Source: an uncultured Acidobacteriota bacterium
Lineage (GTDB): Bacteria > Acidobacteriota > Vicinamibacteria > Vicinamibacterales > 2-12-FULL-66-21
Direction: 5' to 3'
Assembly (NCBI GenBank): GCA_963762995.1
Contig: CAVXMQ010000018.1
Location: 418,481-482,480 of the forward strand
DNA: 64,000 nt
Shown here piece by piece: positions 5,261 through 46,053 of this stretch. The notes below the pieces were generated by a model. It was not told the origin of the DNA and ran no database searches. It saw only the letters and a list, made by a program, of their open reading frames with translations. Positions within the stretch are counted from its first letter, which is position 1. Each line of letters begins with the position of its first letter. The position numbers and the translations under genes were made by a program.

Positions 5261-5263
5261 GTG

Positions 5264-7195
5264 CTACCGCGGCGATCCGGCGAAGTAGCCGAGCACGGCG
5301 TCGGCGCATTTGACGCCGACCACGCGCACGAGGTCTTCGCGCGTGGCGCGGCGGACGCCGGCGACGCTGCCGAAGGCGGTCAGCAGCGCCTTGCGGCGCC
5401 GCGGACCGACGCCGGGGATGGTGTCTATTTCCGAGCGGAGATCGCGCTTCGCGCGGGAGGCGCGGTGGAACGTGACCGCGAACCGGTGCGCCTCGTCGCG
5501 GATTCGCTGGATCAGCAACAGCGCCGGGCTGTCCTTCGGCAGCGCAATCCCGTCCACGTGCTCGCGCGTGAACAGCAGTTCCTCTTTCTTGGCGATGCCA
5601 ACCGCCAGGAGGTTCGCGAGCCCCAGCTCCTCGAGCGCCGCGTACGCCGCGCCGAGCTGCCCCTTGCCGCCATCGATGAGGATCAGATCGGGAAATGGCC
5701 CGCCGTGTTCCAGCAGCTTGCGATAGCGCCGCAAGACGACTTCGTACATCGATTTGAAATCATCCAGAATCCGAGGTTCGGGATCCGCGCCGAACCCCGA
5801 ATCCCGAGTCCCGAGCCCCGACTTGTCCGCCGTAGCGTTCGCGAAGGCGGAACCCCGGATCTTGAACTTGCGATAGTCGGATTTCTTCATCCGGCCGTTC
5901 TCACACACGACCATCGACGCGACCGTCTCGCTCCCCTGGATCGTGGAAATGTCGAAGCACTCGATGCGCCGCGGCAAGGCCGGCAAACCCAGGACGGCGC
6001 GGAGGGTCTCCAGCGCGTCGAAGTTCGCCGCGACGTTCTCGTTGAAGCGCGCCTGGTAGGCGACCGCCGCGTTGCGCGCCGCCAGCTCCAGCAGTCCGCG
6101 TTTCTCGCCGCGCTTAGGCACGACGATCTTCACTCGCCGTTCAGCCGCGGCGCTTAACCAGCCGTCCAGCATCTCGGTGTCGGTCTCCGAAAACGCCACC
6201 GGTATGTGGACCTCCGGAGGCGCGACACGGTCGACATAGAACTGCTGCAATGCGGCCTGGAGGATGTCGGCTTCTGACACGACCGGCTGCAACCGGCCGC
6301 CGCTGGCGCTCTCGGGGAGCGCGACATCGGTGTTTTCCGTCGTCAGCTCCACGCGTTCGACGACGCGGCCGCCGCGCACCTGGAAGACCTGCACGACCGC
6401 GCCGGGCGGGCCGGCTTTGATCCCGAACGCGTCGCGGTCGCCGAGCTCCACGGTTGACATCTTCTGCTGCCGGGTCTGCAGCGTCTCCACCGTGCGGATC
6501 GCATCGCGTAGCTGCGCCGCCTGCTCGAACCGTTCCTCGTTGGACGCCCGCGCCATGCGTTCTTTTAGCGTCGTCAACAGCTCCTGGTTCCGCCCTTCGA
6601 GGAAGAGCCGTGTGTGTTCCACCGCCACGCGATACTCGTCGTGGCTGCAGATCTCGCGCACGCACGGCGCCACGCAGCGGTGAATGTCGAACTCAAGGCA
6701 CGGCCGCTGCCGGTCCCCCGTGATCGCCTCGTTGCACGACCGGATGCCGAAGAGCTTGTGCGTGAGCGACATCGTCTTCCGCGCAAACGAGGCGGGTAGG
6801 AACGGGCCGGCGTAAAAATGGTCGTCGCGTTCGACCTGCCGGGCCACCAGCACCCGCGGAAAGTCCTCCCCCACGGTCAACTGCAGGTACGGGTAGTTCT
6901 TGTCGTCGCGCAACAGGATGTTGTAGCGGGGGAACCGCTGCTTGATCAGGTGGTTTTCGAGCGCCAGCGCCTCCACGACCGAGTCGGTGACGATCACTTC
7001 GAGCCGCTGCGCCTCGTCGAGGAGGGCGTCGATACGGGGGCTGACGCCCTGGGCGCCCAGGTAGGACCGGACGCGGTCCCGCAGCACCTTGGCCTTGCCG
7101 ACGTACAGCGTTTCCCCGGCCCCGTTGTAATACAGGTAGACGCCGGGCTGCTCCGGCAAACGGGCGATCTGGGCCTTGAGGTCACGAATCGGCAT
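5264..7195 (-). CDS. uvrC: Excinuclease ABC subunit C
   Basis: 643-aa ORF. GIY-YIG start (PGVYLYYNGAGETLYVGKA), UVR-type helix region, endonuclease domain (DLILIDGGKGQL), C-terminal HhH (IPGVGPRRRKALL). Confidence 0.93.
   Translation of the reverse strand: MPIRDLKAQIARLPEQPGVYLYYNGAGETLYVGKAKVLRDRVRSYLGAQGVSPRIDALLDEAQRLEVIVTDSVVEALALENHLIKQRFPRYNILLRDDKNYPYLQLTVGEDFPRVLVARQVERDDHFYAGPFLPASFARKTMSLTHKLFGIRSCNEAITGDRQRPCLEFDIHRCVAPCVREICSHDEYRVAVEHTRLFLEGRNQELLTTLKERMARASNEERFEQAAQLRDAIRTVETLQTRQQKMSTVELGDRDAFGIKAGPPGAVVQVFQVRGGRVVERVELTTENTDVALPESASGGRLQPVVSEADILQAALQQFYVDRVAPPEVHIPVAFSETDTEMLDGWLSAAAERRVKIVVPKRGEKRGLLELAARNAAVAYQARFNENVAANFDALETLRAVLGLPALPRRIECFDISTIQGSETVASMVVCENGRMKKSDYRKFKIRGSAFANATADKSGLGTRDSGFGADPEPRILDDFKSMYEVVLRRYRKLLEHGGPFPDLILIDGGKGQLGAAYAALEELGLANLLAVGIAKKEELLFTREHVDGIALPKDSPALLLIQRIRDEAHRFAVTFHRASRAKRDLRSEIDTIPGVGPRRRKALLTAFGSVAGVRRATREDLVRVVGVKCADAVLGYFAGSPR
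5765..5854. repeat. Heptamer-word palindromic segment lying in frame inside uvrC (encodes GSAFANATADKSGLGTRDSGFGADPEPRIL)
   Basis: The coding strand reads GGGGCTC GGGACTC GGGATTC GGGGTTC GG, then CGCGGATCCCGAACCTCGGATTC, which can pair back (GGTTCGG/CCGAACC). The same NCCCGAG words occur at 18833-18853. It sits between the conserved YRKFKIR and DDFKSMYEVV blocks, which are much closer together in UvrC proteins I know. Confidence 0.55.
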
Positions 7196-7872: not shown

Positions 7873-8069
7873 AGGAAGCCGTCTCGCTCCCCGCCCGGAT
7901 TCTGTGGAACGCGTTCTTCTGGACCTACGAACGCGCGACCTGGCAGTACGACGTTATGGTGGTCGCCATCCTCGCGTTCGTCTGGCTCACGCCACCCGAC
8001 TGGCTGAAGGATCCGATGGCGACGGGCGAGGGACCCATTGGGTGGATCCTGGCAATGCTGAATGCTTAA
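7869..8069 (+). CDS. Small hydrophobic protein, unknown function
   Basis: 66-aa ORF whose ATG overlaps the upstream stop (ATGA). One hydrophobic segment (VMVVAILAFVWL). The last 6 codons and the TAA lie in the left arm of the 8051-8145 hairpin. Confidence 0.4.
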   Translation: MKEAVSLPARILWNAFFWTYERATWQYDVMVVAILAFVWLTPPDWLKDPMATGEGPIGWILAMLNA

Positions 8070-8145
8070 TGCTGAATGCTGAATTGAAGGGGAAATGAGG
8101 CAATTGAACCCATTCAGCATTCAGCATTCGACATTCAGCATTGCC
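8051..8145. repeat. Long hairpin built from AATGCTG heptamer words (34-nt arms, 27-nt loop); candidate bidirectional terminator
   Basis: Left arm ggcaatgctgaatgcttaatgctgaatgctgaat (8051-8084). The reverse complement of the right arm (8112-8145) is ggcaatgctgaatgtcgaatgctgaatgctgaat: 31/34 match. It lies between convergent stops at 8069 and 8150. Confidence 0.75.
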
Positions 8146-9892: not shown

Positions 9893-9994
9893 GGCCGGGT
9901 CTAAAGACCCGGCCCTACATGACGGGTCGTTGCCGGGTCTAAAGACCCGGCCTACGTACAGATAACGGTCGTAGGCCGGGTCTTCAGACCCGGC
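9893..9994. repeat. Cluster of three REP-like palindromes GCCGGGTCT(AA/TC)AGACCCGGC; copies 2 and 3 form an inverted pair (BIME-like)
   Basis: Copies at 9893-9914, 9932-9956 and 9970-9994. Copies 2 and 3 each carry the CCTACG extension in opposite orientation around a 13-nt centre. Further copies lie at 20588-20607 and 29661-29684. Confidence 0.8.
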
Positions 9995-14085: not shown

Positions 14086-14209
14086 CAGTGGGGTTGCTCG
14101 GGGCGACTCGGAAACTTAGAACTTAGAATTTAGAACTTAGAACCAATGGTTCTTAGTTCGGAGTTCGTAGTTCTAAGTTTAAAAGCCGCCCGAATCACCC
14201 CTTTGCCCC
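14086..14209. repeat. About 125-bp palindromic element: AGTGGGGTTGCTCGGGG head plus TTAGAAC heptamer arms
   Basis: Arms aaacttagaacttagaatttagaacttagaacca (14112-14145) and tggttcttagttcggagttcgtagttctaagttt (14147-14180), 28/34 complementary. The head cagtggggttgctcggggcgactcgg recurs at both ends of the 20486-20730 element. It lies directly 3' of uvrA. Confidence 0.75.
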
Positions 14210-18402: not shown

Positions 18403-19327
18403 ATGTCCCATGAGGACGCTGCCGCCAGTTCGTTCGTTCCGCCCGTCAGTTCTCCCCGCTCGCACACCTCCACCGATCAGTGGCAGAGCTTCGAGATGCG
18501 CATGCGCCGTCGTCGCGCGGAGCGATGTGCGTTGCGCGCGGAAGTTGCGCTCGAGGCCGGCTTCCCCGATGACGCGCGAGAGGCGCTCGACGAAGCCCGC
18601 CGCCTCGACGCCTCCATCGTTGAGTTCGACGTCCTTCAAGCTCTCGTCGCGGAGCGCCAGGCCGCGTTGGGTCGGGACCAGCGGGCGCGCCGCATCCGTC
18701 GCGTGAGTGTCGCGGCCGTACTGCTTCTCGCGGTTACGGGGACAGGGGTCTGGCTCGACGCGCTCCCGGTTCCAGGTTCCAGGTTCCCGGTTCCCACCTC
18801 CGCGCTCACGCGCTACGGCGGGCCAAGCCGAAGCCCCGAGTCCCGAGCCCCCGACCTCCGCGCTGAAGCGCTACGAAGGAAGAGCCCCGAATCCCGGGAA
18901 CCGGGAACCGGGAACCTGGAACCGAGAGCGCGAGGAGCTGCCCTCGCTCCCGAGCGCGACTGTCTTGACGCACGTCACGCTGCCCGCTGTCTCGAGTCCC
19001 GAGCCACCATTGCCGGCGGTCGCGCAGCCACTGAACGAAGGGCCGCCGGGGTCGGTGGACGAAGGCCCCCGGGTGCGCACCGCGCTCGCTCGCTACGAGG
19101 CGGCCTACTCCACACTGAGCGTGTCGGCCACGCAAGAGCTGCAGCGGCTGTCGCTGGGCCAGTGCACCGTCGCGATCGATGGTGCGGCCGCACGAGCCGA
19201 GTGCAATGGCACCGCGACATGGACGCCCAAGATTGGCGGCGGCTCGCGCACGGAATCGCGCAACTGGCGATTCGAGCTGAAGAACGCCGGCGGCGAATGG
19301 CAGGTCGTCCGCGCCGAAGCGCGTTAG
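18403..19327 (+). pseudogene. Membrane-anchored protein with low-complexity linker and C-terminal globular (possibly NTF2-like) domain, one frame break inside a repeat element
   Basis: The frame of ORF 18403.. is convincing up to the TM segment VSVAAVLLLAVTGTGVWL. The frame of ORF 18707..19327 is convincing from ELPSLPSATV to the stop (ALARYEAAYSTL...WRFELKNAGGEWQVV). The switch lies between 18797 and 18855. Confidence 0.55.
18768..18923. repeat. Heptamer-word inverted-repeat element (GGTTCCA/GGTTCCC arms) embedded in a coding region
   Basis: Left arm ggttccaggttccaggttcccggttccc (18768-18795). The reverse complement of the right arm (18896-18923) is ggttccaggttcccggttcccggttccc: 27/28. Interior has two direct copies of cctccgcgct(ca/ga)(c/a)gcgctacg and NCCCGAG words. 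Confidence 0.75.
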
Positions 19328-20485: not shown

Positions 20486-20730
20486 AGTGGGGTTGCTTGC
20501 GGCGGCTAGAAAACTAAGAACTACGAACTTAGAACTAAGAACGATCTTGTGGAACGCCTCGCGGCTGCGCCGCTCGGCATCGTTAGAGCCGGGTCTAAAG
20601 ACCCGGCACGACATCTCCACATTGGACCTAACTAAAGAGGGCCGACGCGCAGCGTCGGCCCTTCAACAAAATCGTTCTAAGTTCTTACTTCGTAGTTCTT
20701 AGTTTTCGAGTCCCCCCGAGCAACCCCACT
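20486..20730. mobile_element. MITE-like 245-bp element: about 60-nt terminal inverted repeats (AGTGGGGTTGCT.. head plus TAAGAAC words) around a 125-nt core
   Basis: Left 20486-20545 agtggggttgcttgcggcggctagaaaactaagaactacgaacttagaactaagaacgat versus reverse complement of right (20671-20730) agtggggttgctcggggggactcgaaaactaagaactacgaagtaagaacttagaacgat. The core holds a REP copy (20588-20607) and the hairpin gggccgacg-cgcag-cgtcggccc. No ORF. Lies between convergent genes. Confidence 0.65.
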
Positions 20731-20756: not shown

Positions 20757-21854
20757 TCACTTACAGCCCTGCGCGGACAGAATGCCGTCGAGCAGCTCGC
20801 GAAACTGCGTGCCTGAAACGCTGCGGTTCTGGGCCGGGGACCGTCTTGTGGACGACGACCATGTCGCGCTGCGGGAGAACCGTGATGTATTGGCCGACCG
20901 CTCCCTGTCCGGTATAGGCGCCGGCATACGGTCCGGTCGCCGCGGGTCCGTCCCAGATCCACCACAGGTAGCCATAACCGAATGGCCCCTTGCGGTGACG
21001 CTCCGGGTTCATCTGCGTGACGGGAGTCACGACGCTGGAGATGCGGCGCGCCCAGTCGCGGGGCACGATCTCCTGCCCGTTCCACTCGCCGTTGCGCAAC
21101 ATCACGTAGCCGATCCTCGCCATGTCGCGCGTGGAGAAGTTCATGTGATACGCCAGGTGGATCGACCTGGCCCGATCGCCACTGCGATTGTGCGAGGCGC
21201 GATCGAAGTCGCGCATGCCGATCGGGCGCGCCAGGTCCCTCTCGAGCGCGTCGTAAATGCCCTGCTTCGTCTCCTGTTCGAAGATCGTGCCGAGGGCATT
21301 GAAGTCCCAGTTGCTATAGAGGTAGTAGGTGCCGTGCTTCTGCGAGCCGCGCGGCGGCGCCGACGCGAGGTCGTCGCCGCGTTCGACGCTTCGTGATACA
21401 CGCCTGACCGCGCGCCGAGAAGATCCGCGATCGTCGCTTCCTTCTCTGACGGCAACAGCCCGCCGTGATCGTCGATCCCCAGCTCGGCGAGCGTCTTGTC
21501 CACCTTGATGGTGCCGTTCTTCACGTACTTCCCGAACAACATCGCCAGGACGCTCTTCCTCACCGAGGCCAGGTAGCTGACTGCCGTGACGTCACCGTAC
21601 TCATAGAGCACGCGGCCACCGACGATCGCCATGATGGCGGTCGTCGAGAACCCCTTCGCCCGCGCCGTCACGAGATCCAGCTTGTCAGCGCAATACCCGA
21701 CCGTCTTTGGATCGGCAATGCGCTCCCACTCCGCGCCGGGAAAAATTCCCGATGCTGTCCGCGTCGCGGCGACGGGCGTCGATGTCGGCTCATGGCTCGC
21801 GCAGGCCGCCGCGATGAGACCCGCGAGCAGAAGACCGGAGAGAAGCCGTTTCAT
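20757..21854 (-). pseudogene. Serine hydrolase (beta-lactamase/transpeptidase-like), two frame breaks (or assembly indels)
   Basis: ORF 21141..21854: signal/lipobox (LIAAACAS) and SxxK (SVRKS). Continues in the frame of ORF 20761..21216 (YYLYSNWDFNALG, GYGYLWW) after a one-base deficit near 21375-21385. The true C-terminus (NRSVSGTQFRELLDGILSAQGCK) is in the frame of ORF 20757..20975 after a surplus base in a C-run near 20836-20840. Confidence 0.8.
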
Positions 21855-21884: not shown

Positions 21885-24800
21885 ATGGCAATCTCCTCCG
21901 GCTCCCGAATTGGTCCGTACTCAGTGCTGAGCACGCTCGGACTGGGTGGGATGGGTGAGGTCTATCGCGCTCGCGATCCGCGCCTGGGGCGTGACGTTGC
22001 CGTCAAGCTGATTCGAAAATCCGCGCACGACCAGGAAGGCGCACTCGACCGGCTGCTTCGAGAAGCCACGCTCGCCTCCTCGCTCAACCATCCAAACATC
22101 GTCACGATCTACGACACCGGCGTCGTCGGCGCCGACCGTTACGTGGCCATGGAGCTCGTCGAGGGGACGACGCTTCGCAAGCTGGCGGCGAACGGGCTGC
22201 CGGTGGAGCGCGCCGTCCAGATTGGCCGGCAGGTCGCGGAAGCGCTCGCCGTCGCGCATGCCGCCGGGATCGTCCACCGCGACATCAAGCCCGAGAACAT
22301 CGTCGTCCGTCCCGACGGATACGTGAAGCTGCTCGACTTCGGCCTGGCGCGCCAGCACGAAGTGGCCGCGGCTTCCGCCACGTTGCCCGGCACCGGACCC
22401 GGCACCGATCCCGGAATGGTGATCGGCACGGTCGGCTACATGGCGCCCGAGCAGGCCCGCGGAGAGGTTGCGGCGCCTGAGGCCGACATCTTCGCGTTCG
22501 GCGCCGTCCTGTACGAGCTCTTCGCGGGGCGCCACCCCTTCATCTCCACGTCCCAGCTCGCGACGCTGCACGCGCTGATGTGGGAGACGCCGGAACCACC
22601 CGCGTTGCTGAATCCGGAGTTGCCGCGCACGCTCGATCAACTGGTGATCGAGATGCTGCAGAAGGATTCGCGCCTGCGACCGGGCGCGAGCGAAGTGCTG
22701 CTCCGCCTGGGCCTCGTGCACGACTCCACCGTGGCGGCGGCGCTGTCGTCGATCGCGGTCGTCCCGCGTACGCTCCACACCTCGCGCGCCGTCGTCGGGC
22801 GCGATAACGAGATGGAGGTCCTGTACCACGAGTTCGACCGCGCCAAGGGAGGCAAGAGCCGGCTGGTCATCGTCTCGGCAGAAGCCGGTGTCGGCAAGAC
22901 GACGCTGGTCGAGACGTTCGTGCGCTCGCTGGACGAGCATGGCGAGCCTGTACGCGTCGGCCGCGGTCGCTGCTCGGAGCGGCTCGCAGGCACGGAAGCC
23001 TATCTCCCGGTGCTCGAGGCGCTCGAAAGCCTGCAGAACCACGATCAGCTTGGCAGCATCACGCGGCTCATACGTGCGGTGGCGCCGAGTTGGTATGTGC
23101 AGATCACGCCACCGTCGAGCAACGACTCCTCTGCCGCGCGTCTCGTCGCGGAAACAGCGGGAGGTTCGCAGGAGCGCCTGAAGCGCGAAATCGCGGCCCT
23201 CCTCGAAGAAGCGGGCCGCGTGCAGCCGGTCATTCTGTGGTTCGACGACGTGCACTGGGCGGATGAATCGACGACCGACCTGCTGTCGTACCTCGCCCAA
23301 CGCACCGAAGGCACGCGTGTGTTGATCATCGTGACCTGCCGCGCCTCCGACCTGGCGCAGGCCCGTCACCCCTTCCTATCGGTGCGCCTCGAACTCCTCG
23401 CTCACGGAGCGTGCCGGGAATTGACACCGGGACCACTCGACGTGGCCGCGATCGATCGTTACGTTTCACTGCAGTTCCCCCAGCATGGGTTCCCGAGCGG
23501 CATCGCGGAATTGATCCACCGCCGCACCGAAGGGCATCCCCTGTTCGTCGCCGACTTGCTGCGCGAGCTCCGTCGGCGGCACGTGATCCGCCAACTGGAC
23601 GGGCGGTGGACGATGACGGGCGATCTCGCGGCGCTCGAGCGCGAGCTGCCGGCGTCGGTCAGGAGCCTGATCCAGCGCAAGATGGAGGCGCTCGACGATG
23701 TGGACCGCCGGCTCCTCGGAGCCGCGAGCGTGCAGGGTGCCGACTTCGACACGCTGGCGCTGGCCGGCGCCCTCGGCATGGGAGAAGAAGATGTCGAGTC
23801 GCGCCTCGAGCGGATCGAACGCGAGCACGCGCTCGTGCGCTTCGCCGAGGAAGAAGAAACTCGCAACCGCCTGCTGACGCTGCGCTATCGCTTCTCGCAC
23901 CAGGTCTACCAGAACGCCTTCTACGAATCGCTGCGCGTCACGCGGCGCGCAGCGTTCGCTCGCGCGATCGCCGAGCAACTGGTCGGGCGGATGGCCAGCG
24001 AGCCGTGCGAATGTGCGGCCAGCGTCGCGATCCTTTACGAGACCGCGCGCGAGAACATCAAGGCGGCGGAGTACTTCAACCACGCCGCGCAGGCGGCGGC
24101 GCGGCTTTACGCACACGACGAGACGGCCAAGCTGGCGCAGCGCGGCCTGAGCCTGCTGACATCGGAGCCACCGAGCCCGGCGAGGAACGCCGCCGAACTG
24201 TCCCTGCAGATGTCCTACGGCCTGGCGCTGAAGACGAGCCGCGGCTATGCCGTGCCGGAAGTGGGCGCCGCGTATGCGCGCGCCCGCGACCTGTGCCGCC
24301 AGGTGGACGATCCCGGGCGCGTCGTCCCCGTGCTCATGGGGCTCTCAGCGCATCACATCGTTTCGGGCGAGATCGAGACCTCGCGCGACGTGTCGCTCGA
24401 GATGGTCGATCTCTTCGCCCGCCTGGGCGATCCGAACCTGCAGATGCTCGGGAACTGGGCCATGGGGGCCGCGCTCTTCCATCTCGGCGAGCTCCAGGCG
24501 GCGCAAACGCACCTCACGCGTGCGTTGGAGATGTACGACCCGGCGTTCCACGGCCCCCGCGTCTGGGAAACCGGGATCGAGCCGGGCGTCTTCTCGCGCT
24601 GCGAGCTGTCGCGGATCCTGTTGTTGCGCGGCTATCCGGACCAGTGCCTGGCGATGATGAGCGAAGCGGTCGCGCAGGCGCGGGCGCTCGAACATCCGCA
24701 ACCGCTCGCCTTCGCGCTGATGTTCCTGTGTATTGCGCACCTTGGCCGTCGCGATCCCGCGTCGGTGCTCGCCACCTACGACGAGCTCGACCAGATTTGC

Positions 24801-25340
24801 CGCGCCCATGGCATCGCGCAGGAGCTGCAATGGGCGGGTCCGCTGCGCGGCCGTGCGCTCGTCGAGCTCGGCGATGTCGATCGCGGCCTGCGCGAGATGG
24901 AAGAGTCGCTCGCCGCCCACACCCTGACGCGATCGGCCCTGCTGCGTCCGTACTACTTTGTGCTCTACGCCGGCGCGTTAATCCGCGGCCAGCGCTTCCA
25001 GGATGCCTGGCGGGCACTCGACGAAGCGCAGGATGTGACTGAAGAAACCTCGCAACGCGCCTACACCTCCGAGCACCAGCGGCTGCGCGGCGAGGTGCAG
25101 GCGGCACTCGGCGATCCGGCGGCCGCGGAGGCGAGCTTCCTGAACGCGCTCCGCATCGCCCGCGAGCAGGGCGCCACCTGGCTCGAGTTGCGTGCCGCAC
25201 GCGGCTATGCCAATTACCTTGCGGCGCGCGGCCGCATTGAGGAGGCCCGAGCGATGCTCGCGCCCGTGGCCGCCTCGATTACCGAGGGGCACCGAACACT
25301 CGATTACCTCTATACCGACGCGCTGCTGAAGACCTTCTGA
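21885..25340 (+). CDS. Ser/Thr protein kinase fused to AAA/STAND-type ATPase and TPR-like repeats
   Basis: 1151-aa ORF. Kinase motifs GLGGMGEVY, VAVK, HRDIKPEN, DFG, GYMAPEQ. P-loop SAEAGVGKTTLV. Long helical-repeat C-terminus. Confidence 0.9.
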   Translation: MAISSGSRIGPYSVLSTLGLGGMGEVYRARDPRLGRDVAVKLIRKSAHDQEGALDRLLREATLASSLNHPNIVTIYDTGVVGADRYVAMELVEGTTLRKLAANGLPVERAVQIGRQVAEALAVAHAAGIVHRDIKPENIVVRPDGYVKLLDFGLARQHEVAAASATLPGTGPGTDPGMVIGTVGYMAPEQARGEVAAPEADIFAFGAVLYELFAGRHPFISTSQLATLHALMWETPEPPALLNPELPRTLDQLVIEMLQKDSRLRPGASEVLLRLGLVHDSTVAAALSSIAVVPRTLHTSRAVVGRDNEMEVLYHEFDRAKGGKSRLVIVSAEAGVGKTTLVETFVRSLDEHGEPVRVGRGRCSERLAGTEAYLPVLEALESLQNHDQLGSITRLIRAVAPSWYVQITPPSSNDSSAARLVAETAGGSQERLKREIAALLEEAGRVQPVILWFDDVHWADESTTDLLSYLAQRTEGTRVLIIVTCRASDLAQARHPFLSVRLELLAHGACRELTPGPLDVAAIDRYVSLQFPQHGFPSGIAELIHRRTEGHPLFVADLLRELRRRHVIRQLDGRWTMTGDLAALERELPASVRSLIQRKMEALDDVDRRLLGAASVQGADFDTLALAGALGMGEEDVESRLERIEREHALVRFAEEEETRNRLLTLRYRFSHQVYQNAFYESLRVTRRAAFARAIAEQLVGRMASEPCECAASVAILYETARENIKAAEYFNHAAQAAARLYAHDETAKLAQRGLSLLTSEPPSPARNAAELSLQMSYGLALKTSRGYAVPEVGAAYARARDLCRQVDDPGRVVPVLMGLSAHHIVSGEIETSRDVSLEMVDLFARLGDPNLQMLGNWAMGAALFHLGELQAAQTHLTRALEMYDPAFHGPRVWETGIEPGVFSRCELSRILLLRGYPDQCLAMMSEAVAQARALEHPQPLAFALMFLCIAHLGRRDPASVLATYDELDQICRAHGIAQELQWAGPLRGRALVELGDVDRGLREMEESLAAHTLTRSALLRPYYFVLYAGALIRGQRFQDAWRALDEAQDVTEETSQRAYTSEHQRLRGEVQAALGDPAAAEASFLNALRIAREQGATWLELRAARGYANYLAARGRIEEARAMLAPVAASITEGHRTLDYLYTDALLKTF

Positions 25341-25490
25341 CGTGCTACGTGCTACGGGCTGACGTGCGACGTGCTGACGTGCTCACGTGCTACGTGCATG
25401 ACGTGCTAACGTGCGACGTGCGACGTGCGACGTGCGACGTGCGACGTGCGAACGTGCGACGTGCGACGTGCGACGTGCGACGTGCGACGG
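25339..25490. repeat. Tandem array of GACGTGC(T) words (8-nt variants, then 5+1+5 near-perfect GTGCGAC heptamers)
   Basis: Starts inside the kinase stop codon. 25411-25488 is gtgcgac x5, gtgcgaac, gtgcgac x5. It is the reverse-complement word set of the 25725-25838 array. Confidence 0.9.
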
Positions 25491-25496
25491 AGAGTG

Positions 25497-25736
25497 ATGC
25501 CAGAACACGTGCTTGCGGTGCAGGTGGAGTGCTACGCCGGCTACATGGGCGAGCAGACCCCGCGTGTCATCCAGCTCGGCGAACAACGCATCCAGGTCGC
25601 CGAACTCCTCGACCAGTGGCTCGCCCCCACCCACCGCTACTTCAAGCTGCTCGGCAAAGACGGCCACACCTACATCGTCCGCCACGACACCGTGTCACAC
25701 GCCTGGGAGCTAACGATGTTCAGTCGCAGCACGTAA
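25497..25736 (+). CDS. Small hypothetical protein (79 aa) exactly filling the space between two inverted heptamer arrays
   Basis: ATG 25497 is preceded by GGAG (25489-25492). MPEHVLAVQVECYAGYMGEQTPRVIQLGEQRIQVAELLDQWLAPTHRYFKLLGKDGHTYIVRHDTVSHAWELTMFSRST is non-repetitive with balanced composition. The TAA lies in the first unit of the right array. Confidence 0.5.
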   Translation: MPEHVLAVQVECYAGYMGEQTPRVIQLGEQRIQVAELLDQWLAPTHRYFKLLGKDGHTYIVRHDTVSHAWELTMFSRST

Positions 25737-25838
25737 GCACGTCAGCACGGCACGTCAGCACAGCACGTCAGCACGTGAGCACGTCGCACGTGTGCACGTC
25801 AGCACGTGGCACGTCAGCACGTAGCACATAGCACGTTA
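25725..25838. repeat. Tandem array of (A)GCACGTC words, inverted relative to 25339-25490
   Basis: agcacgta agcacgtc agcacg gcacgtc agcac agcacgtc agcacgtg agcacgtc gcacgtgt gcacgtc agcacgtg gcacgtc agcacgt agcacat agcacgt. It ends about 14 nt before the GGAGG of the tricorn-like gene. Confidence 0.9.
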
Positions 25839-25863
25839 GAATGAGCCCTCCCCGGAGGTTTTG

Positions 25864-28800
25864 ATGATCCGCATGCGTTCCTATGAGCTGGTCGCGGTTG
25901 GACTCCTGTCCGTGGTTGCCCTCTCCGCCGACATCGGCGGCCAGCGGGCGGCCGACGCGCCACGTCAGGCACTCCCCTCTTTTGCCGAACCAGCGATTTC
26001 TCCAGACGGACGCGAACTCGCCATCGTGTCGAGCGGCGACATCTGGACGGTGCCGGCGGCTGGCGGTGACGCGCGGCTGCTGATCGCGCACGATGCCAAC
26101 GAGTCGCGGCCGATGTACTCGCCCGACGGCACCCGGTTGGCCTTCGTCTCGGACCGCACCGGCGGCGGGGACATCTACGTGCTGACACTCGCCACCGGGG
26201 CCCTGGCGCGGGTCACCTTCGACGACGGGCTGGACCGGCTGGACGGGTGGTCGCGCGATGGCGCCTGGATCTACTTCTCGTCGTCGAGTCGCGACATCGC
26301 GGGCATGCATGACATCTTCCGGGTCCGCGCGGCCGGGGGCACGCCGATGGCGGTCAGCGCCGACCGCTACACAAGCGAGTTTTTCGCGGCCCCCGCCCCC
26401 GATGGACGACGCGTGGCGTTCAGCGCCCGCGGGAACGGCGTCGGTCAGTGGTGGCGCAACGGCAGCTCGCATCTCGACGAATCGGAGATCTGGCTGCTGC
26501 ACGATGGAGATCAGCCGAAATACGAACAGCTGACCGAACGCGGCGCCAAGCAGCTCTGGCCGATGTGGAGCGGAGACGGCAAAAGCTTGTTCTACGTTTC
26601 CGATCGCGGCGGACGTCAGAACGTCTGGACGCTGACGCTCGGCGGGCAGCCGCGACAGGTCACACGCTTCAACGACGGCCGCGTGCTGTGGCCGACCATT
26701 ACCAGCGATGGAAAGACGATCGCCTTCGAGCGCGACTTCGAAATCTGGACGCTCGACACGGCGAGCGGACGCGCCGCGCAACTGGCGATCTCGCGGCGCG
26801 GCCTGCCGGCCGGCCCGGCCGTTGACCATCTGACGCTGAACAACGGATTCCAGGACCTGGAGCTCTCGCCGGACGGCCGCAAGGTGGCGTTCACGGCGCG
26901 CGGAGAGGTGTGGGCCGCTTCCGCGCGTGACGGCGGAGACGCCGTGCGTGTGACGCGCACCTCCGCGCGGGAATCCCAGGTCGCCTGGCTGCCAGACAGC
27001 CGGCGCATCGTTTACGTGTCGGAACGCGACAATGTGCCGCATGTCTTCGCCTACGACTTCACCACCAGTAAGGAAACGCAGCTGACCAACGCCGCCACGG
27101 GAGACAGCGGGCTGCGTGTGTCGCCAGACGGCAAGTCGCTAGCCTTCGTGCGCGACGGCAAGGAATTGCGCGTGATGGACATCGAGGCGAAAACGGACCG
27201 GGCGCTGGCCTCAGGCCACATCGTCCGCTCCGATCGTGGACTTGCGTGGTCGCCCGATAGCAAGTGGATCGCCTATCTCGGCCTGAGCGGCGCGTCGTTC
27301 CGCAACGTGTACGCAGTACCGGCGGCCGGAGGCACCAGCCGCGCGGTGACCTCGATCCCGAACGGGAACGCGAACAACGTGTCCTGGAGTCCCGACGGCA
27401 CCTACCTGATCTACAACACCAACCAGCGGACGGAACCGTCGCAGACCGTGCGCGTGGATCTCATCCTCAGGACTCCGCGCTTCCGCGAGGATCGCTTCCG
27501 CGATCTGTTCCGCGACGAGCCGACGCGGACGCCTCCCGCGGAGCGTCGTCCCGAGGGAGAGACGGCGCCTCGACGTGAAAGCGCCGCGCCGCCGCGCGAC
27601 CCCGCGAAGCCGGTGGAGATCGTGTTCGAGGACATCCGCCGTCGTGTCAGCATCCTGCCGGTTGGCGTCGAGGTGTCGACGCAGACGTTCAGCCCGGACG
27701 GCCGCTCGCTGCTGCTCACCGCCACGGCCGCGGGACAACAGAACCTTTATCTCTACTCGATGGATGAACTCGCGCGGGAGCCTGCCGTGGCGCGGCAGCT
27801 GACGTCCACCGCCGGCAACAAGTCGGACGCGCAGTTCACGGCTGACGGTCGCGAGGTCTTCTACCTCGAACAGGGCCGCATCTCGGTGATTCCGGTCGAG
27901 AGCCGGCAGGCACGCGCCGTGTCGGTGAACGCCGAGATGGACATCGACTTCTCGCAGGAGAAGATGGAAGTCTTCCGCCAGGCGTGGACGTACATGCGGG
28001 ATGGCTTCTACGACGACAAGTTCCACGGGGTGAACTGGCAGGCGGTGCGCTCTCGCTATGAACCGCGCGTCGCCGCCGCACAGACGAGCGACGAACTGCG
28101 CCGGCTGCTCAACCTGATGGTCGGCGAGTTGAACGCCTCGCATCTCGGGGTATCGGGCGGGCGCGGTGGTGGTGGACGTGGCGGCGAGTCGCCAGCGTCG
28201 GCGCGCCTCGGCCTCCGCTTCGATCGCGCGGCCTACGAACGCAACGGCCACCTCAAGGTGACCGAGGTCATCGCGCTCGGGCCGGCGGCGATCACGCGCC
28301 AAATATCGGCCGGCGACTACGTCACCGCTGTGAATGGCACGCCGGTCACCGCGGACGTCAACCTCGATGCGCTGCTGGTCCGCGGCGTCGACCGCCGCAC
28401 GGTGCTGACCGTCGCCGCGCAACCCGCGGCCACCGACACGCGCGAGGTCATCGTCCGCCCGGTGACGCAGGGTACCGAGAAAAACCTGCTCTACCGGCAA
28501 TGGGTTGAATGGAACCGCGCCTACGTGGACAAGGCCAGCGGCGGCCGCCTTGGCTACGCGCACATGAACGACATGTCGGAAGGCGCGCTGCAACGTCTCT
28601 ATCTCGACCTCGACGCTGAGAACCGCGTCAAGGACGGCGTGGTCATCGACGTCCGCAACAACAACGGCGGCTTCGTGAACGCCTACGCGCTCGACGTCCT
28701 CTCGCGACGCGGTTATCTGATGATGACGCCGCGCGGCCTTCCGATGGCGCCGGCCCGCAGCGTCCTCGGCCAGCGCGCGCTGGAACTGCCGACGGTGCTC

Positions 28801-29133
28801 GTCACCAACCAGCACTCGCTCTCGGACGCGGAGGACTTCACCGAAGGCTATCGCACGCTACGCTTGGGTAAGGTCGTCGGTGAACCGACCTCCGGCTGGA
28901 TCATCTACACCGGCAGCCAGACGCTGGTGGATGGATCCTCCATGCGGATGCCGGGAACGCGCATCACCTCGCTCGACGGCACCACGATGGAGCTGAACCC
29001 GCGCAAGGTGGACGTCCCCGTCACCCGTCCGATCGGCGAGAGCCTGACGGGCAAGGACAGCCAGTTGGACACGGCCGTCCGTGAGTTGCTTCAGCAACTG
29101 GGCGCTAAGCGCGGCACTACCGCGGTTCGCTGA
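25864..29133 (+). CDS. Tricorn-like protease (beta-propellers + PDZ + S41-type peptidase domain)
   Basis: About 1089 aa from ATG 25864 (GGAGG 7 nt upstream). Signal-like N-terminus, repeated SPDG..(A/L)AF PD40-type blades, a PDZ-like region (GDYVTAVNG), and a C-terminal S41-like block (VLVTNQHSLSDAEDF). Confidence 0.8.
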   Translation: MIRMRSYELVAVGLLSVVALSADIGGQRAADAPRQALPSFAEPAISPDGRELAIVSSGDIWTVPAAGGDARLLIAHDANESRPMYSPDGTRLAFVSDRTGGGDIYVLTLATGALARVTFDDGLDRLDGWSRDGAWIYFSSSSRDIAGMHDIFRVRAAGGTPMAVSADRYTSEFFAAPAPDGRRVAFSARGNGVGQWWRNGSSHLDESEIWLLHDGDQPKYEQLTERGAKQLWPMWSGDGKSLFYVSDRGGRQNVWTLTLGGQPRQVTRFNDGRVLWPTITSDGKTIAFERDFEIWTLDTASGRAAQLAISRRGLPAGPAVDHLTLNNGFQDLELSPDGRKVAFTARGEVWAASARDGGDAVRVTRTSARESQVAWLPDSRRIVYVSERDNVPHVFAYDFTTSKETQLTNAATGDSGLRVSPDGKSLAFVRDGKELRVMDIEAKTDRALASGHIVRSDRGLAWSPDSKWIAYLGLSGASFRNVYAVPAAGGTSRAVTSIPNGNANNVSWSPDGTYLIYNTNQRTEPSQTVRVDLILRTPRFREDRFRDLFRDEPTRTPPAERRPEGETAPRRESAAPPRDPAKPVEIVFEDIRRRVSILPVGVEVSTQTFSPDGRSLLLTATAAGQQNLYLYSMDELAREPAVARQLTSTAGNKSDAQFTADGREVFYLEQGRISVIPVESRQARAVSVNAEMDIDFSQEKMEVFRQAWTYMRDGFYDDKFHGVNWQAVRSRYEPRVAAAQTSDELRRLLNLMVGELNASHLGVSGGRGGGGRGGESPASARLGLRFDRAAYERNGHLKVTEVIALGPAAITRQISAGDYVTAVNGTPVTADVNLDALLVRGVDRRTVLTVAAQPAATDTREVIVRPVTQGTEKNLLYRQWVEWNRAYVDKASGGRLGYAHMNDMSEGALQRLYLDLDAENRVKDGVVIDVRNNNGGFVNAYALDVLSRRGYLMMTPRGLPMAPARSVLGQRALELPTVLVTNQHSLSDAEDFTEGYRTLRLGKVVGEPTSGWIIYTGSQTLVDGSSMRMPGTRITSLDGTTMELNPRKVDVPVTRPIGESLTGKDSQLDTAVRELLQQLGAKRGTTAVR

Positions 29134-29155
29134 TCGCTGTTCGCGGTTCGAGGTT
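29121..29155. repeat. Five tandem CGCGGTT-type heptamers spanning two convergent stop codons
   Basis: cgcggtt cgctgat cgctgtt cgcggtt cgaggtt. Contains the TGA of the tricorn-like gene (29131-29133) and abuts or overlaps the TAA of the 29154..29597 gene. Confidence 0.55.
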
Positions 29156-29597
29156 ACGCCGCGACACAGACCCGTGCGCTCTCCCAGAGCACGGACTGCT
29201 GCTCGAACGTCTTTCGGTAGACTTCGATCACCGTCTGCACCGACTCACGTGCGGCGGCGGTGTCGGGGTGGACCAGTAGCAGCACCTTGCTTTGCTCGTG
29301 ATCGAGTGTCCCGGCCGGTGTCCGCCACTGTCCTTCGGCCTCCCAGACCGTCAGGCCCTCAGGAAACCGTTTCGTCACCTCGTCCCGCAGGAAGAGTTGC
29401 CATTCGAGCTCGGTAACGGCGCCTTTCGGGCGCGCGAGACCAAAGTACAGGGTGGTGCGAATCTGCGACGTGGACTTGGTGCCGCAGTCGAGCACCACGG
29501 TGAAGCCCTGCGCGTCGGGGCGCGCGGTCATCAGCGTGCCTCCCGCCAAGCCGACGGTGAAGATGACGGCAGCAGCGAGACCAGTTATCGAACGCAT
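29154..29597 (-). CDS. Small secreted protein (DUF3574-like by recollection)
   Basis: 147-aa ORF with a signal-like N-terminus. Blocks YFGLARPKG, EWQLFLRDEVTKRFPEGLTVWEAEGQW. Confidence 0.55.
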   Translation of the reverse strand: MRSITGLAAAVIFTVGLAGGTLMTARPDAQGFTVVLDCGTKSTSQIRTTLYFGLARPKGAVTELEWQLFLRDEVTKRFPEGLTVWEAEGQWRTPAGTLDHEQSKVLLLVHPDTAAARESVQTVIEVYRKTFEQQSVLWESARVCVAA

Positions 29598-29660
29598 ACG
29601 TTTCTCCTTTGATCGAGTCGGAGGTTGGTCGAACTAACTCGCTCCTGCGGCTTCCGTATT

Positions 29661-29684
29661 GCCGGGTCTGAAGACCCGGCCTAC
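29661..29684. repeat. REP-like palindrome copy GCCGGGTCTGAAGACCCGGCCTAC
   Basis: Same core and CCTAC extension as the 9893-9994 copies. Confidence 0.8.
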
Positions 29685-29708
29685 AGACACCTCTCGACCT
29701 CGTATCCA

Positions 29709-29780
29709 CCGAACCCCGAACCCCGAGGTACCCGAACCCCGAATTACCGAATACCGAATTACCGAACACCGAATTACCGC
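29709..29780. repeat. Tandem CCGAAYY(A) 7/8-mer array (no inverted partner nearby) overlapping a stop codon
   Basis: ccgaacc ccgaacc ccgaggta cccgaacc ccgaatta ccgaata ccgaatta ccgaaca ccgaatta ccg. The last unit supplies the TAA (29774-29776, minus strand) of the DUF885-like gene. Confidence 0.8.
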
Positions 29781-40026: not shown

Positions 40027-40102
40027 GCCGGCGTAGCTCAGTTGGTAGAGCAGCTGATTCGTAATCAGCAGGTCGTCGGTTCGAGTCCGACCGCCGGCTC
40101 CA
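40027..40102 (+). tRNA. tRNA-Thr (anticodon CGT), CCA encoded
   Basis: Hand fold: acceptor GCCGGCG/CGCCGGC, D arm GCTC-AGTTGGTA-GAGC, anticodon arm GCTGA-TTCGTAA-TCAGC, variable AGGTC, T arm GTCGG-TTCGAGT-CCGAC, discriminator T, CCA. 76 nt. Confidence 0.95.
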
Positions 40103-40210
40103 ATATCAGGCGGGGGCTTCGCCCCGCGCACCCCCTACACACTCACTCGCGCGGCGGCGCCGCGCTCCGTTCGCGTGGGCGCTCGCTTCGCTCGCGCTTA
40201 TCTTTCTTCG
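40056..40210. repeat. Direct repeat copy A (3' 47 nt of tRNA-Thr + 108 nt downstream)
   Basis: Matches 45900-46053 except one C-run length difference (ccccc vs cccc) and one substitution (gcgctta vs gcgccta). Confidence 0.9.
40110..40127 (+). terminator. Hairpin GCGGGG-(loop)-CCCCGC just 3' of tRNA-Thr
   Basis: GC-rich 6-bp stem 8 nt after the CCA. It is part of the duplicated flank (also at about 45954-45971). Confidence 0.35.
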
Positions 40211-45899: not shown

Positions 45900-46053
45900 G
45901 ATTCGTAATCAGCAGGTCGTCGGTTCGAGTCCGACCGCCGGCTCCAATATCAGGCGGGGGCTTCGCCCCGCGCACCCCTACACACTCACTCGCGCGGCGG
46001 CGCCGCGCTCCGTTCGCGTGGGCGCTCGCTTCGCTCGCGCCTATCTTTCTTCG
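45900..46053. repeat. Direct repeat copy B; first 47 nt (45900-45946) are a 3' fragment of tRNA-Thr
   Basis: gattcgtaatcagcaggtcgtcggttcgagtccgaccgccggctcca plus a 107-nt flank, near-identical to 40056-40210. No 5' half of a tRNA upstream. Confidence 0.9.

Follow-up and report, generated by a model that had tools for sequence, protein, structure and literature searches.

Inverted heptamer arrays around a small conserved gene of an Acidobacteriota-like bacterium: a possible split member of a genome-wide class of paired repeats

The DNA considered here is a stretch of 64,000 nt from an uncultured Acidobacteriota bacterium (contig CAVXMQ010000018.1 of assembly GCA_963762995.1), hereafter called the window; all coordinates are positions in this whole stretch unless another locus is named. 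The element in question is a 79-aa open reading frame (ORF) framed by two inverted arrays of short tandem repeats and located between a gene for a protein kinase and a gene for a tricorn-like protease. The ORF is a genuine, widely conserved gene of an unannotated family of small all-beta proteins. As for the arrays, we put at about one in two the probability that they represent one pair, split by a gene, out of a genome-wide class of paired inverted heptamer arrays, with arms that would form a stem looping out the gene in the transcript. Related loci fetched for comparison are cited by their L numbers; among them is L134, a syntenic locus from an independent assembly, 94% related to the window.

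The arrangement had been picked out earlier from the letters of the sequence, and this original prediction is correct in all its coordinates and descriptions of the array-ORF-array unit. The locus is composed as follows.

21885-25340, + strand: upstream gene, serine/threonine kinase with AAA_16 (STAND-like) and TPR domains (Pfam Pkinase, 4e-49; AAA_16, 2.5e-25; TPR_12)
25339-25406, + strand: distal (outer) part of the left array, diverged 7-8-nt units of the GACGTGCT/ACGTGCT type
25407-25489, + strand: proximal (inner) part of the left array, 11 near-perfect GACGTGC heptamers
25489-25494, + strand: Shine-Dalgarno (SD) sequence GGAGAG, 2 nt ahead of the ATG
25497-25736, + strand: 79-aa ORF, with ATG at 25497 and TAA at 25734-25736
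25728-25836, + strand: right array, made of AGCACGT(C/G/A) units that are the left units in reverse complement
25837-25846, + strand: TAGAATGAGC, directly 3' of the right array, conserved with L134 and containing the -10-like hexamer TAGAAT
25864-29133, + strand: downstream gene, tricorn-like S41/PD40 protease (Pfam), preceded by GGAGG at 25854-25858

The left array, delimited at 25339-25489 by Tandem Repeats Finder (TRF; period 7, 20.6 copies, 87% matches, score 197), opens with a GACGTGCT unit at 25339 that overlaps the TGA stop codon of the kinase gene (25338-25340). Its distal part, complementary to the right array's outer units, has been conserved in L134 unit for unit; its proximal part is made of 5 + 5 perfect GACGTGC units plus one unit with an extra A. 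The right array (25727/8-25836 by TRF; score 90 at period 8 and 129 at period 15) begins with a unit, AGCACGTA, that encodes the last codons of the ORF and its stop codon TAA, and a gap of 17 nt separates its end from the GGAGG of the tricorn gene. The two arms are therefore not adjacent, being 238 nt apart (25490-25727). The tricorn-like protein is 100% identical to P0121 (1089 aa), and the kinase product has 85.7% aa identity with the kinase of L137, in an alignment beginning at 21951. An assembly artefact is argued against both by the presence of the same unit in the independent assembly L134 and by the 90%-identity cluster of the ORF, 11 of whose 14 members have the C-terminus ...MFSR(S/N)T, for which the first unit of the right array codes.

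Scanning of the region 24800-26200 for sigma-70 promoters and intrinsic terminators returned none of either: no site is terminator-like, the right arm being followed by GTTAGAATGAG, and the TAGAAT within TAGAATGAGC received no call, although, as a speculation, it could be the -10 element of a tricorn promoter. At gathering score, Rfam 15 has a single match in the whole window, a tRNA; in a permissive search of 25200-25950 the best match was sbcD RNA, whose 19 bits (E = 0.26) fall short of the gathering score of 40.

The first line of evidence for the proposed reading is the complementarity of the arms. The best gapless pair (25335-25397 with 25779-25841) covers 63 nt and is 90% complementary, and the inverted repeat carries a 4-nt extension, TTCT/AGAA, beyond the arrays. 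Folded as RNA, the segment 25330-25850 reaches -283 kcal/mol versus -222.1 +/- 6.5 for its shuffled versions (z = -9.3), with 0 of 100 shuffles folding as well as the native sequence. From the partition function, 97 bp are expected between the left and right arrays, and thus the suggestion that the 5' and 3' ends of the ORF mRNA pair over about 100 nt holds at the level of prediction. The same applies to L134, where the folded unit has the ORF enclosed by an almost unbroken stem of ~75 bp (-228.9 kcal/mol, z = -10.9). In silico, the window and L134 consequently both present the long-range pairing of 5' and 3' flanks around an RNA that typifies RNase III processing stems. The proximal left array can also fold on itself alone (-40 kcal/mol). 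Sequestration of the SD by the stem was considered and rejected, the pairing of the SD not being conserved between the window and L134.

The second line of evidence comes from the rest of the window, where, in agreement with the proposal that the unit belongs with other heptamer-arm elements, eight period-7 arrays are found versus 0.01 expected from first-order Markov resamples of the window, and arrays of every other period from 4 to 11 number 0-1 each. Besides the pair around the ORF, four inverted heptamer pairs are present.

8054-8084 and 8111-8142: unit AATGCTG
14113-14143 and 14149-14179: unit AACTTAG (element 14087-14200)
18762-18796 and 18892-18924: unit TCCCGGT
20512-20542 and 20674-20704: unit AACTAAG (element 20486-20730)

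The units of these four pairs are unrelated, the arms have ~4.4 units, and three of the four pairs lie between convergent genes. Inverted heptamer pairs occur in the relatives L014, L023, L028, L127 and L138 as well. Unsplit hairpins stand between convergent genes at five independent sites, by the author's reading of gene calls based on the GC content of third codon positions (GC3), namely those at window 8054, window 14113 and window 20512 (with its orthologs), the inner pair of L014, and L023. Several of the unsplit heptamer hairpins touch stop codons.

Within this class, the two AACTNAG elements of the window share outer inverted repeats, AGTGGGGTTGC (3 matches versus 0.6 expected), and one of the two has orthologs. 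The hairpin between an exo/endonuclease-phosphatase gene and a beta-lactamase-like gene is found at window 20486-20730, L127 2440-2620 and L138 1845-2100, in genomes in which the flanking genes have 73-82% nt identity, and the outer inverted repeat AGTGGGGT(T/C)G is common to all three. The units differ by genome (AACTAAG/AACTTAG, AACTCAG and AACTCCG) and seem, by inspection only, to resemble each other more closely within a genome, from arm to arm, than from genome to genome. The loops, of 131, 48 and 128 nt, contain different REP-like hairpins (named after the repetitive extragenic palindromic, REP, sequences).

A second case of a complete gene enclosed by such arms has been found in L014, another Acidobacteriota metagenome-assembled genome (MAG), where an EVE-domain gene (4747-5151, Pfam 1e-39) is framed by inverted GGCTTCA arrays (4657-5297). 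These arms, 34 nt in length, are separated by 565 nt and complementary at 91% (z = -6.9). The right arm also makes a local hairpin with a third array, direct and partial, at L014 5163-5188. The DUF3574 gene of the window (29154-29597, - strand) was considered as a third framed gene and was dropped, since its flanking heptamer arrays (29121-29155, CGCGGTT-type, and 29709-29779, CCGAAYY-type) are not significantly complementary. L134 lacks the segment corresponding to window 29233-29761, so that most of the DUF3574 gene is deleted there.

Two small hairpin motifs recur in the window and in its relatives. The REP-like dispersed hairpin GCCGGGTCTNNAGACCCGGC has five copies in the window, where 0.01 would be expected: a tandem of three at 9894-9994 and single ones at 20588-20607 and 29661-29680; it is present in relatives too (L137 4046-4071 and 7387-7477, L138 1935-1995), often within the loops of heptamer hairpins. 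The other motif, CC(T)GCCTCGCC/CCTCCGCGCT-NNN-GCGC..GGCGG, is intergenic and is located at window 18797-18880 and at L137 4010-4044 and 7507-7540.

With regard to the enclosed ORF, its supposed protein-coding nature is confirmed by several observations. In a 90%-clustered collection it has 896 homologs at E <= 1e-3, nearly all of 75-90 aa and labelled 'hypothetical'; a profile search retrieved 2481 representatives of 50%-identity clusters at E <= 1e-3, 1008 of them at E <= 1e-10, and at least 551 loci in species-representative genomes carry a member of the family. The hosts are mostly Vicinamibacterales and other Acidobacteriota, together with Beta- and Deltaproteobacteria and Methylomirabilis. 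An alignment of 28 sequences has 25 invariant columns, and the motifs VECYAG..GE.TPR, D.WLAP.HRYFK and Y.VRHD....WELT.F are among the conserved ones. The GC3 of the ORF (0.82) is similar to that of the neighbouring genes. Between the window and L134 the ORF differs at 16 of 237 nt with a ratio of nonsynonymous to synonymous substitution rates (dN/dS) of 0.20, which indicates purifying selection.

The AlphaFold2 model of the product is confident (pLDDT 89.6, pTM 0.79) and presents a six-strand all-beta structure. In the PDB neither a fold match by Foldseek (best E 0.74) nor a significant sequence-profile match (best, the ELMO N-terminal domain, E 0.064) was found, and therefore the structure provides no functional clue. 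Pfam gave only a sub-threshold hit to DUF3107 (PF11305; 14.3 bits versus a gathering score of 27, E = 0.052), and no family for the protein was found in NCBIfam, PADLOC or PHROG. All-against-all clustering of the genes around 83 loci identified yjbQ (PF01894, UPF0047) as the only recurrent neighbour, at six loci plus the close relatives of the window: it lies directly upstream of the ORF in the closest relatives, the context being otherwise variable, and in many Acidobacteriota the family member is translationally coupled to it. When metagenomes were scanned for near-identical loci, only relatives at <=61% identity came back. The members of the ORF's 90%-identity cluster are drawn from several assemblies, and one member is extended at its N-terminus, the extension reading through degenerate units of the L134 kind; the array-ORF-array unit thus probably exists in a small clade of strains.

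The history of the locus can be approached through the tricorn orthologs, which gave five informative contexts for a comparison of gene order. In L136 (tricorn 89%) and L138-140 (87%) the order is beta-lactamase-like(-), ORF(-), yjbQ(-), two to three small genes(-) and tricorn(+), with genes 1-10 nt apart and no arrays; this arrangement, present in two lineages, is probably ancestral. In L137 (tricorn 83%) the order is beta-lactamase-like(-), kinase(+), a 95-nt spacer and tricorn(+); the spacer contains REP-like hairpins and neither arrays nor the ORF, which is located, with its small-gene companions, downstream of the tricorn gene on the other strand. In the window the order becomes beta-lactamase-like(-), kinase(+), array-ORF-array(+) and tricorn(+). 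L134 has the window order, but its kinase gene is cut to two relics (L134 1105-1206) matching window 24687-24727 and 25017-25077, while the kinase promoter region is kept intact and joined to an intact array-ORF-array unit. The kinase-STAND gene was lost there by several deletions, the last of which ends at the outer edge of the left array. In the window, the beta-lactamase-family gene of this slot (20763-21854, - strand) is in two frames, split near 21380, and is intact in L134, L136 and L138 (354-363 aa); the split is either a frameshift, making it a pseudogene, or a sequencing error.

In L136, L138-140, L127, L086 and L126 the ORF comes immediately after yjbQ, at a spacing of 1-6 nt. By comparison of the flanks, the window leader GGAGAGTG-ATG matches the yjbQ end GGAGAGTAG (GGA GAG TAG c GTG) of the operon versions, and the SD of the window, GGAGAG, is homologous to the last codons of yjbQ (GGA GAG TAG) in these operon-coupled relatives. 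Since the leader matches the end of yjbQ, only the SD and the ORF were relocated out of the yjbQ operon. The ORF has 82% nt identity with the L137 copy, about the divergence of the flanking genes, and is therefore a relocated ortholog, not one acquired from a foreign source.

As regards the original idea of a 'cargo-carrying' unit, the relocation of an SD-ORF module from the yjbQ operon stands, and mobility is not supported. According to such a model, the arrays would be the terminal inverted repeats of a non-autonomous element, similar to MITEs (miniature inverted-repeat transposable elements) or REPINs, mobilized in trans with the ORF as cargo. Arms of ~110-150 nt do enclose exactly the SD and the ORF, relative to the tricorn gene the ORF is found in three different places among relatives, a GCACGTN array exists in another Acidobacteriota MAG (L042), and the AACTNAG hairpin is present twice in the window with the shared outer repeats AGTGGGGTTGC. 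However, the window has no second copy of the unit, and among the loci fetched for homologs the ORF lies between such arms only in the syntenic L134; no transposase or recombinase is found nearby, and the relocations involve whole operons or single genes devoid of arrays. Furthermore, no target-site duplication is definable, because the L137 spacer, 82 nt in this comparison, is replaced and not interrupted. A mobile cassette is on this evidence improbable.

The same gene-order data bear on the possibility of an on/off switch in which homologous recombination between the inverted arms (~100 bp) would turn the ORF round with respect to the kinase promoter. In support of this view, inverted repeats of 63 nt and 90% identity, longer if gaps are admitted, flank the whole gene, and the ORF is oriented, with respect to the beta-lactamase-like and tricorn genes, in the opposite way to the probable ancestral arrangement. 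Nevertheless, the four array-framed contigs seen (the window, L134 and two P0001 contigs) agree in orientation, arrays are absent from the ancestral arrangement, and the arms, being imperfect and made of short units, are poor RecA substrates. An invertible segment seems very unlikely.

Array length differs between relatives. The arms have ~10 units each in L134, and the comparison of lengths between strains that had been called for revealed differences on the ORF-proximal side of both: the outer 75-85 nt of the two arms correspond unit by unit, and the window has an additional 52 nt in the left arm and about 34 nt, in older-looking 8-mer units, in the right arm. Where the window has perfect heptamers, L134 has three degenerate units (CGTGCGG GGGCGAA CGGGCGA). 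The absence of the perfect run from L134 agrees with its proposed origin as a recent slippage expansion, and the alignment supports an expansion and homogenisation of the 11-heptamer run in the lineage of the window. From these comparisons, array length does change by gain and loss of units between relatives.

A contingency locus had also been suggested; in this reading, slippage of the arrays would switch or tune, within a population, how the ORF or the tricorn gene is expressed. The part of this idea that holds is the difference in both array lengths between the two related assemblies; in addition, the perfect 11-unit run adjoins the SD, and the stop codon of the ORF lies inside the first unit of the right array. 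On the other hand, the arrays are outside the reading frames and after stop codons, they do not occupy the spacer of a promoter (no -35/-10 pair and no promoter-like site were found at the locus), 11 of the 14 cluster members keep the same C-terminus, and the genes are not of the surface or antigen type. The same negative conclusion was reached for the heptamer repeats of Xanthomonas (Rehm et al., 2015, PMC4692102). A contingency function accordingly deserves little credence.

The question whether homologs elsewhere are also flanked by inverted repeats was answered in the negative. A tandem array within 400 nt of an ORF homolog was found at one of 82 loci (L058). When the flanks of 120 nt on either side of the gene are paired with each other, the duplex energy is -179 kcal/mol in the window and -154 in L134, versus -72 +/- 15.5 kcal/mol at 80 other loci, a value indistinguishable from that of mismatched flank controls (-70 +/- 14 kcal/mol). 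The notion of arms travelling with the gene family was for these reasons rejected, homologs elsewhere having neither framing arrays (82 loci) nor complementary flanks (80 loci). By TRF, the window has no GACGTGC/GCACGTC arrays beyond the pair itself, and among 140 fetched loci arrays of the GACGTGC type occur only in the syntenic L134 and, as a lone array, in L042. The L042 array (269-347, with six perfect GCACGTC units) is a GCACGTN array with no partner visible in the stretch fetched, though it lies only 269 nt from the end of that stretch and a partner may lie beyond.

An observation unrelated to the heptamer arrays concerns the 3' part of a tRNA gene, which is directly repeated together with ~110 nt of downstream sequence at window 40027-40210 and 45900-46053. 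The two repeats (~155 nt, 99-100% identical, 5.8 kb apart) bracket genes for methyltransferases, a fragment of a major facilitator superfamily (MFS) transporter and a rhodanese/metallo-beta-lactamase protein. They resemble the att sites of an integrated element; no integrase is found inside, and L136 has an integrase adjoining the same tRNA.

Simple repeats specific to the heptamer length have been on record in bacteria since the cyanobacterial short tandemly repeated repetitive (STRR) sequences were described. The heptamer simple sequence repeats (SSRs) of bacteria have been surveyed genome-wide, and inverted pairing has been described in Xanthomonas (Rehm et al., 2015, PMC4692102). In X. campestris and X. 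axonopodis, GGGAATC repeats form ~185 arrays per genome with a modal number of four units, and 70-75 convergent array pairs per genome could form stem-loops (Rehm et al., 2015, PMC4692102). These arrays are strongly biased towards the end of the upstream ORF, at its stop codon or across it; most of them are transcribed, and their length and sequence vary extensively between the two species at conserved sites; no function was identified (PMC4692102). The same paper cites heptamers as the over-represented long SSR in many bacteria, and the idea that their excess reflects the DNA segment held by the polymerase (PMC4692102).

The elements of the window are likewise intergenic tandem arrays of 7-nt units, the unsplit ones also with ~4 units, and 7-nt units are over-represented relative to other unit sizes. 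The arms are convergently oriented on opposite strands and capable of forming a stem-loop, here with 238 nt between them; the left array starts in the TGA of the kinase gene and the right one contains the TAA of the ORF. Variation in length and sequence at a conserved site is seen both between the window and L134 and in the AACTNAG hairpin of the window, L127 and L138. Transcription of the present arms may be supposed from the lack of a promoter-like site between the kinase gene and the ORF. The differences are that GACGTGC/GCACGTC has no G-tracts and does not form G-quadruplexes, that the unit varies by element (GACGTGC, AATGCTG, AACTNAG, TCCCGGT, GGCTTCA), that the arms reach 15-21 units and, here and in L014, lie 240-565 nt apart and enclose a whole gene, and that the host is Acidobacteriota-like and not a gammaproteobacterium. 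The element thus has every architectural feature of the Xanthomonas pairs save the G-rich unit and the unsplit arms. It is best filed with this known class, to which it adds arms split around a gene, diverse units that do not form G-quadruplexes and an Acidobacteriota-like host.

Other repeat systems resemble it less closely. TAACTGA direct repeats have been described in Beggiatoaceae and cyanobacteria (MacGregor, 2015, PMC4679880). Like the present elements, the STRR/TAACTGA repeats are heptamer-specific, intergenic and near gene ends or starts, and only a post-transcriptional role has been proposed for them (PMC4679880); in them, however, direct arrays of a single dominant unit, located upstream of start codons, overwhelmingly prevail, and only one inverted pair is reported (PMC4679880), whereas in the present case inverted pairing is the rule and units are diverse. 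REPs, bacterial interspersed mosaic elements (BIMEs) and REPINs are similarly intergenic and hairpin-forming, often at 3' ends or between convergent genes (PMC3116915). In contrast to the heptamer arms, which have no common sequence, are internally tandem and have no associated transposase in view, each REP is a conserved palindrome of 20-40 nt, present in many copies and moved by a RAYT transposase. Stabilization of mRNA 3' ends is a classical role of REPs.

In rRNA operons and in phage early mRNAs, flanking 5' and 3' sequences pair into stems between cistrons that are substrates of RNase III. The likeness to the present unit lies in the long-distance pairing of flanks that loops out the enclosed RNA; those stems, however, are unique sequences of ~20-30 bp with mapped cleavage sites, whereas 75-100 bp of simple repeats enclosing an mRNA are predicted here. 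Finally, MITEs and integron cassettes share with the unit the inverted repeats around a short segment and, for the cassettes, the promoterless single ORF. Unlike them, the unit has no multiple copies, scorable target duplication, attC-like site or nearby integrase or transposase, and its arms are simple repeats.

The strongest competitor of the proposed reading is that the arrays are a functionless by-product, grown by slippage and inverted by template switching or fold-back synthesis, harmless in intergenic positions, with an accidental framing of the ORF and an RNA stem devoid of any role. Several observations count against the proposed reading. Mismatches in 12 arm pairs have no G-U bias (15 G-U, 13 A-C and 38 other), and the differences between the outer arms of the window and L134 mostly make mismatches and do not compensate one another. 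RNA-level selection on the arms was looked for in precisely these two ways, by G-U bias and by compensatory change, and neither sign of it was found; selection on RNA pairing as such is therefore not demonstrated, and an origin at the DNA level followed by neutral drift accounts for the same arm data. The pairing of the SD by the stem also differs between the window and L134, and the by-product model fits the data on mismatches, compensation and SD pairing equally well. Moreover, the terminator scan of 24800-26200 found no U-tract after the stem, and the 'empty site' of L137 has REP-like hairpins and no heptamer hairpin, so that the splitting of a pre-existing hairpin by the gene is not demonstrated.

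Further points in favour of a by-product are that the loops of sister elements gather unrelated REP-like hairpins, that array length changes freely, that rearrangements have affected the beta-lactamase-like/tricorn slot in every relative examined, with several deletions beside the arrays in L134, and that the Xanthomonas counterparts are likewise without an assignable function (PMC4692102). What it accounts for less readily is the strong period-7 specificity of the excess (8 versus 0.01 expected, with 0-1 arrays for other periods), the predominance of inverted pairs with a tendency towards stop codons and gaps between convergent genes, and the hairpin kept at an orthologous site in three genomes despite the turnover of its units: the retention of an unstable repeat at one site suggests maintenance. 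A functionless origin is thus possible, although on balance unlikely.

According to the proposed reading, that of a split heptamer pair whose stem loops out the gene, the two arms would bracket one promoterless small gene, SD plus ORF, relocated from the end of the yjbQ operon into the spacer between the kinase and tricorn genes. The arms would be built and resized by 7-nt replication slippage, and would then diverge slowly with no sign of base-by-base compensation. Between the kinase stop codon and the SD there is nothing but the left arm, in which no promoter-like site was found; any transcript expressing the ORF would for this reason include that arm, probably by read-through from the kinase promoter. 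The L134 unit, which hangs on the retained kinase promoter region, and the purifying selection on the ORF fit with the ORF being transcribed by way of the left arm. After synthesis of the right arm, the two could zip into a stem of ~75-100 bp, looping out the ORF, and this stem would tolerate shifts of register, any misalignment by 7 nt still allowing pairing. By analogy with the unsplit heptamer hairpins at the ends of convergent genes, it would act as a structural, sequence-independent RNA element that could define 3' ends or block exonucleases or read-through; it would also be a likely substrate of RNase III, which would separate the kinase, ORF and tricorn messages. Transcription of the arms, the formation of such a stem in vivo and any effect of it on RNA processing, stability or termination are here inferred.

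A broader and rather improbable extension of this reading would regard paired heptamer arrays as a sequence-independent 'zipper' of RNA or single-stranded DNA in Vicinamibacterales-like bacteria, which tolerates shifts of pairing register, brackets single genes and has loops serving as preferred capture sites for promoterless SD-ORF modules and REP-like hairpins. The two framed genes (the ORF and the EVE-domain gene of L014), the variable loops at the orthologous hairpin and the precise relocation of SD plus ORF are compatible with it. If it were true, the arms would excise or insulate single genes from operon transcripts, as rRNA processing stems do, and these bacteria would possess a gene-cassette system based on simple repeats instead of recombinase recognition sites.

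The coexistence of many units with one architecture in a single genome argues that what matters is structure or a mutational mechanism, and not a sequence-specific binding factor or G-quadruplexes. From this perspective, the locus and its relatives offer a cleaner comparative system for the puzzle of the heptamer repeats, including one orthologous hairpin with unit turnover in both arms, and the two cases in which arms enclose a complete gene predict a long-range RNA duplex. The 79-aa protein, for its part, represents a widespread small all-beta family, often coupled to yjbQ, with no annotation or structural relative.

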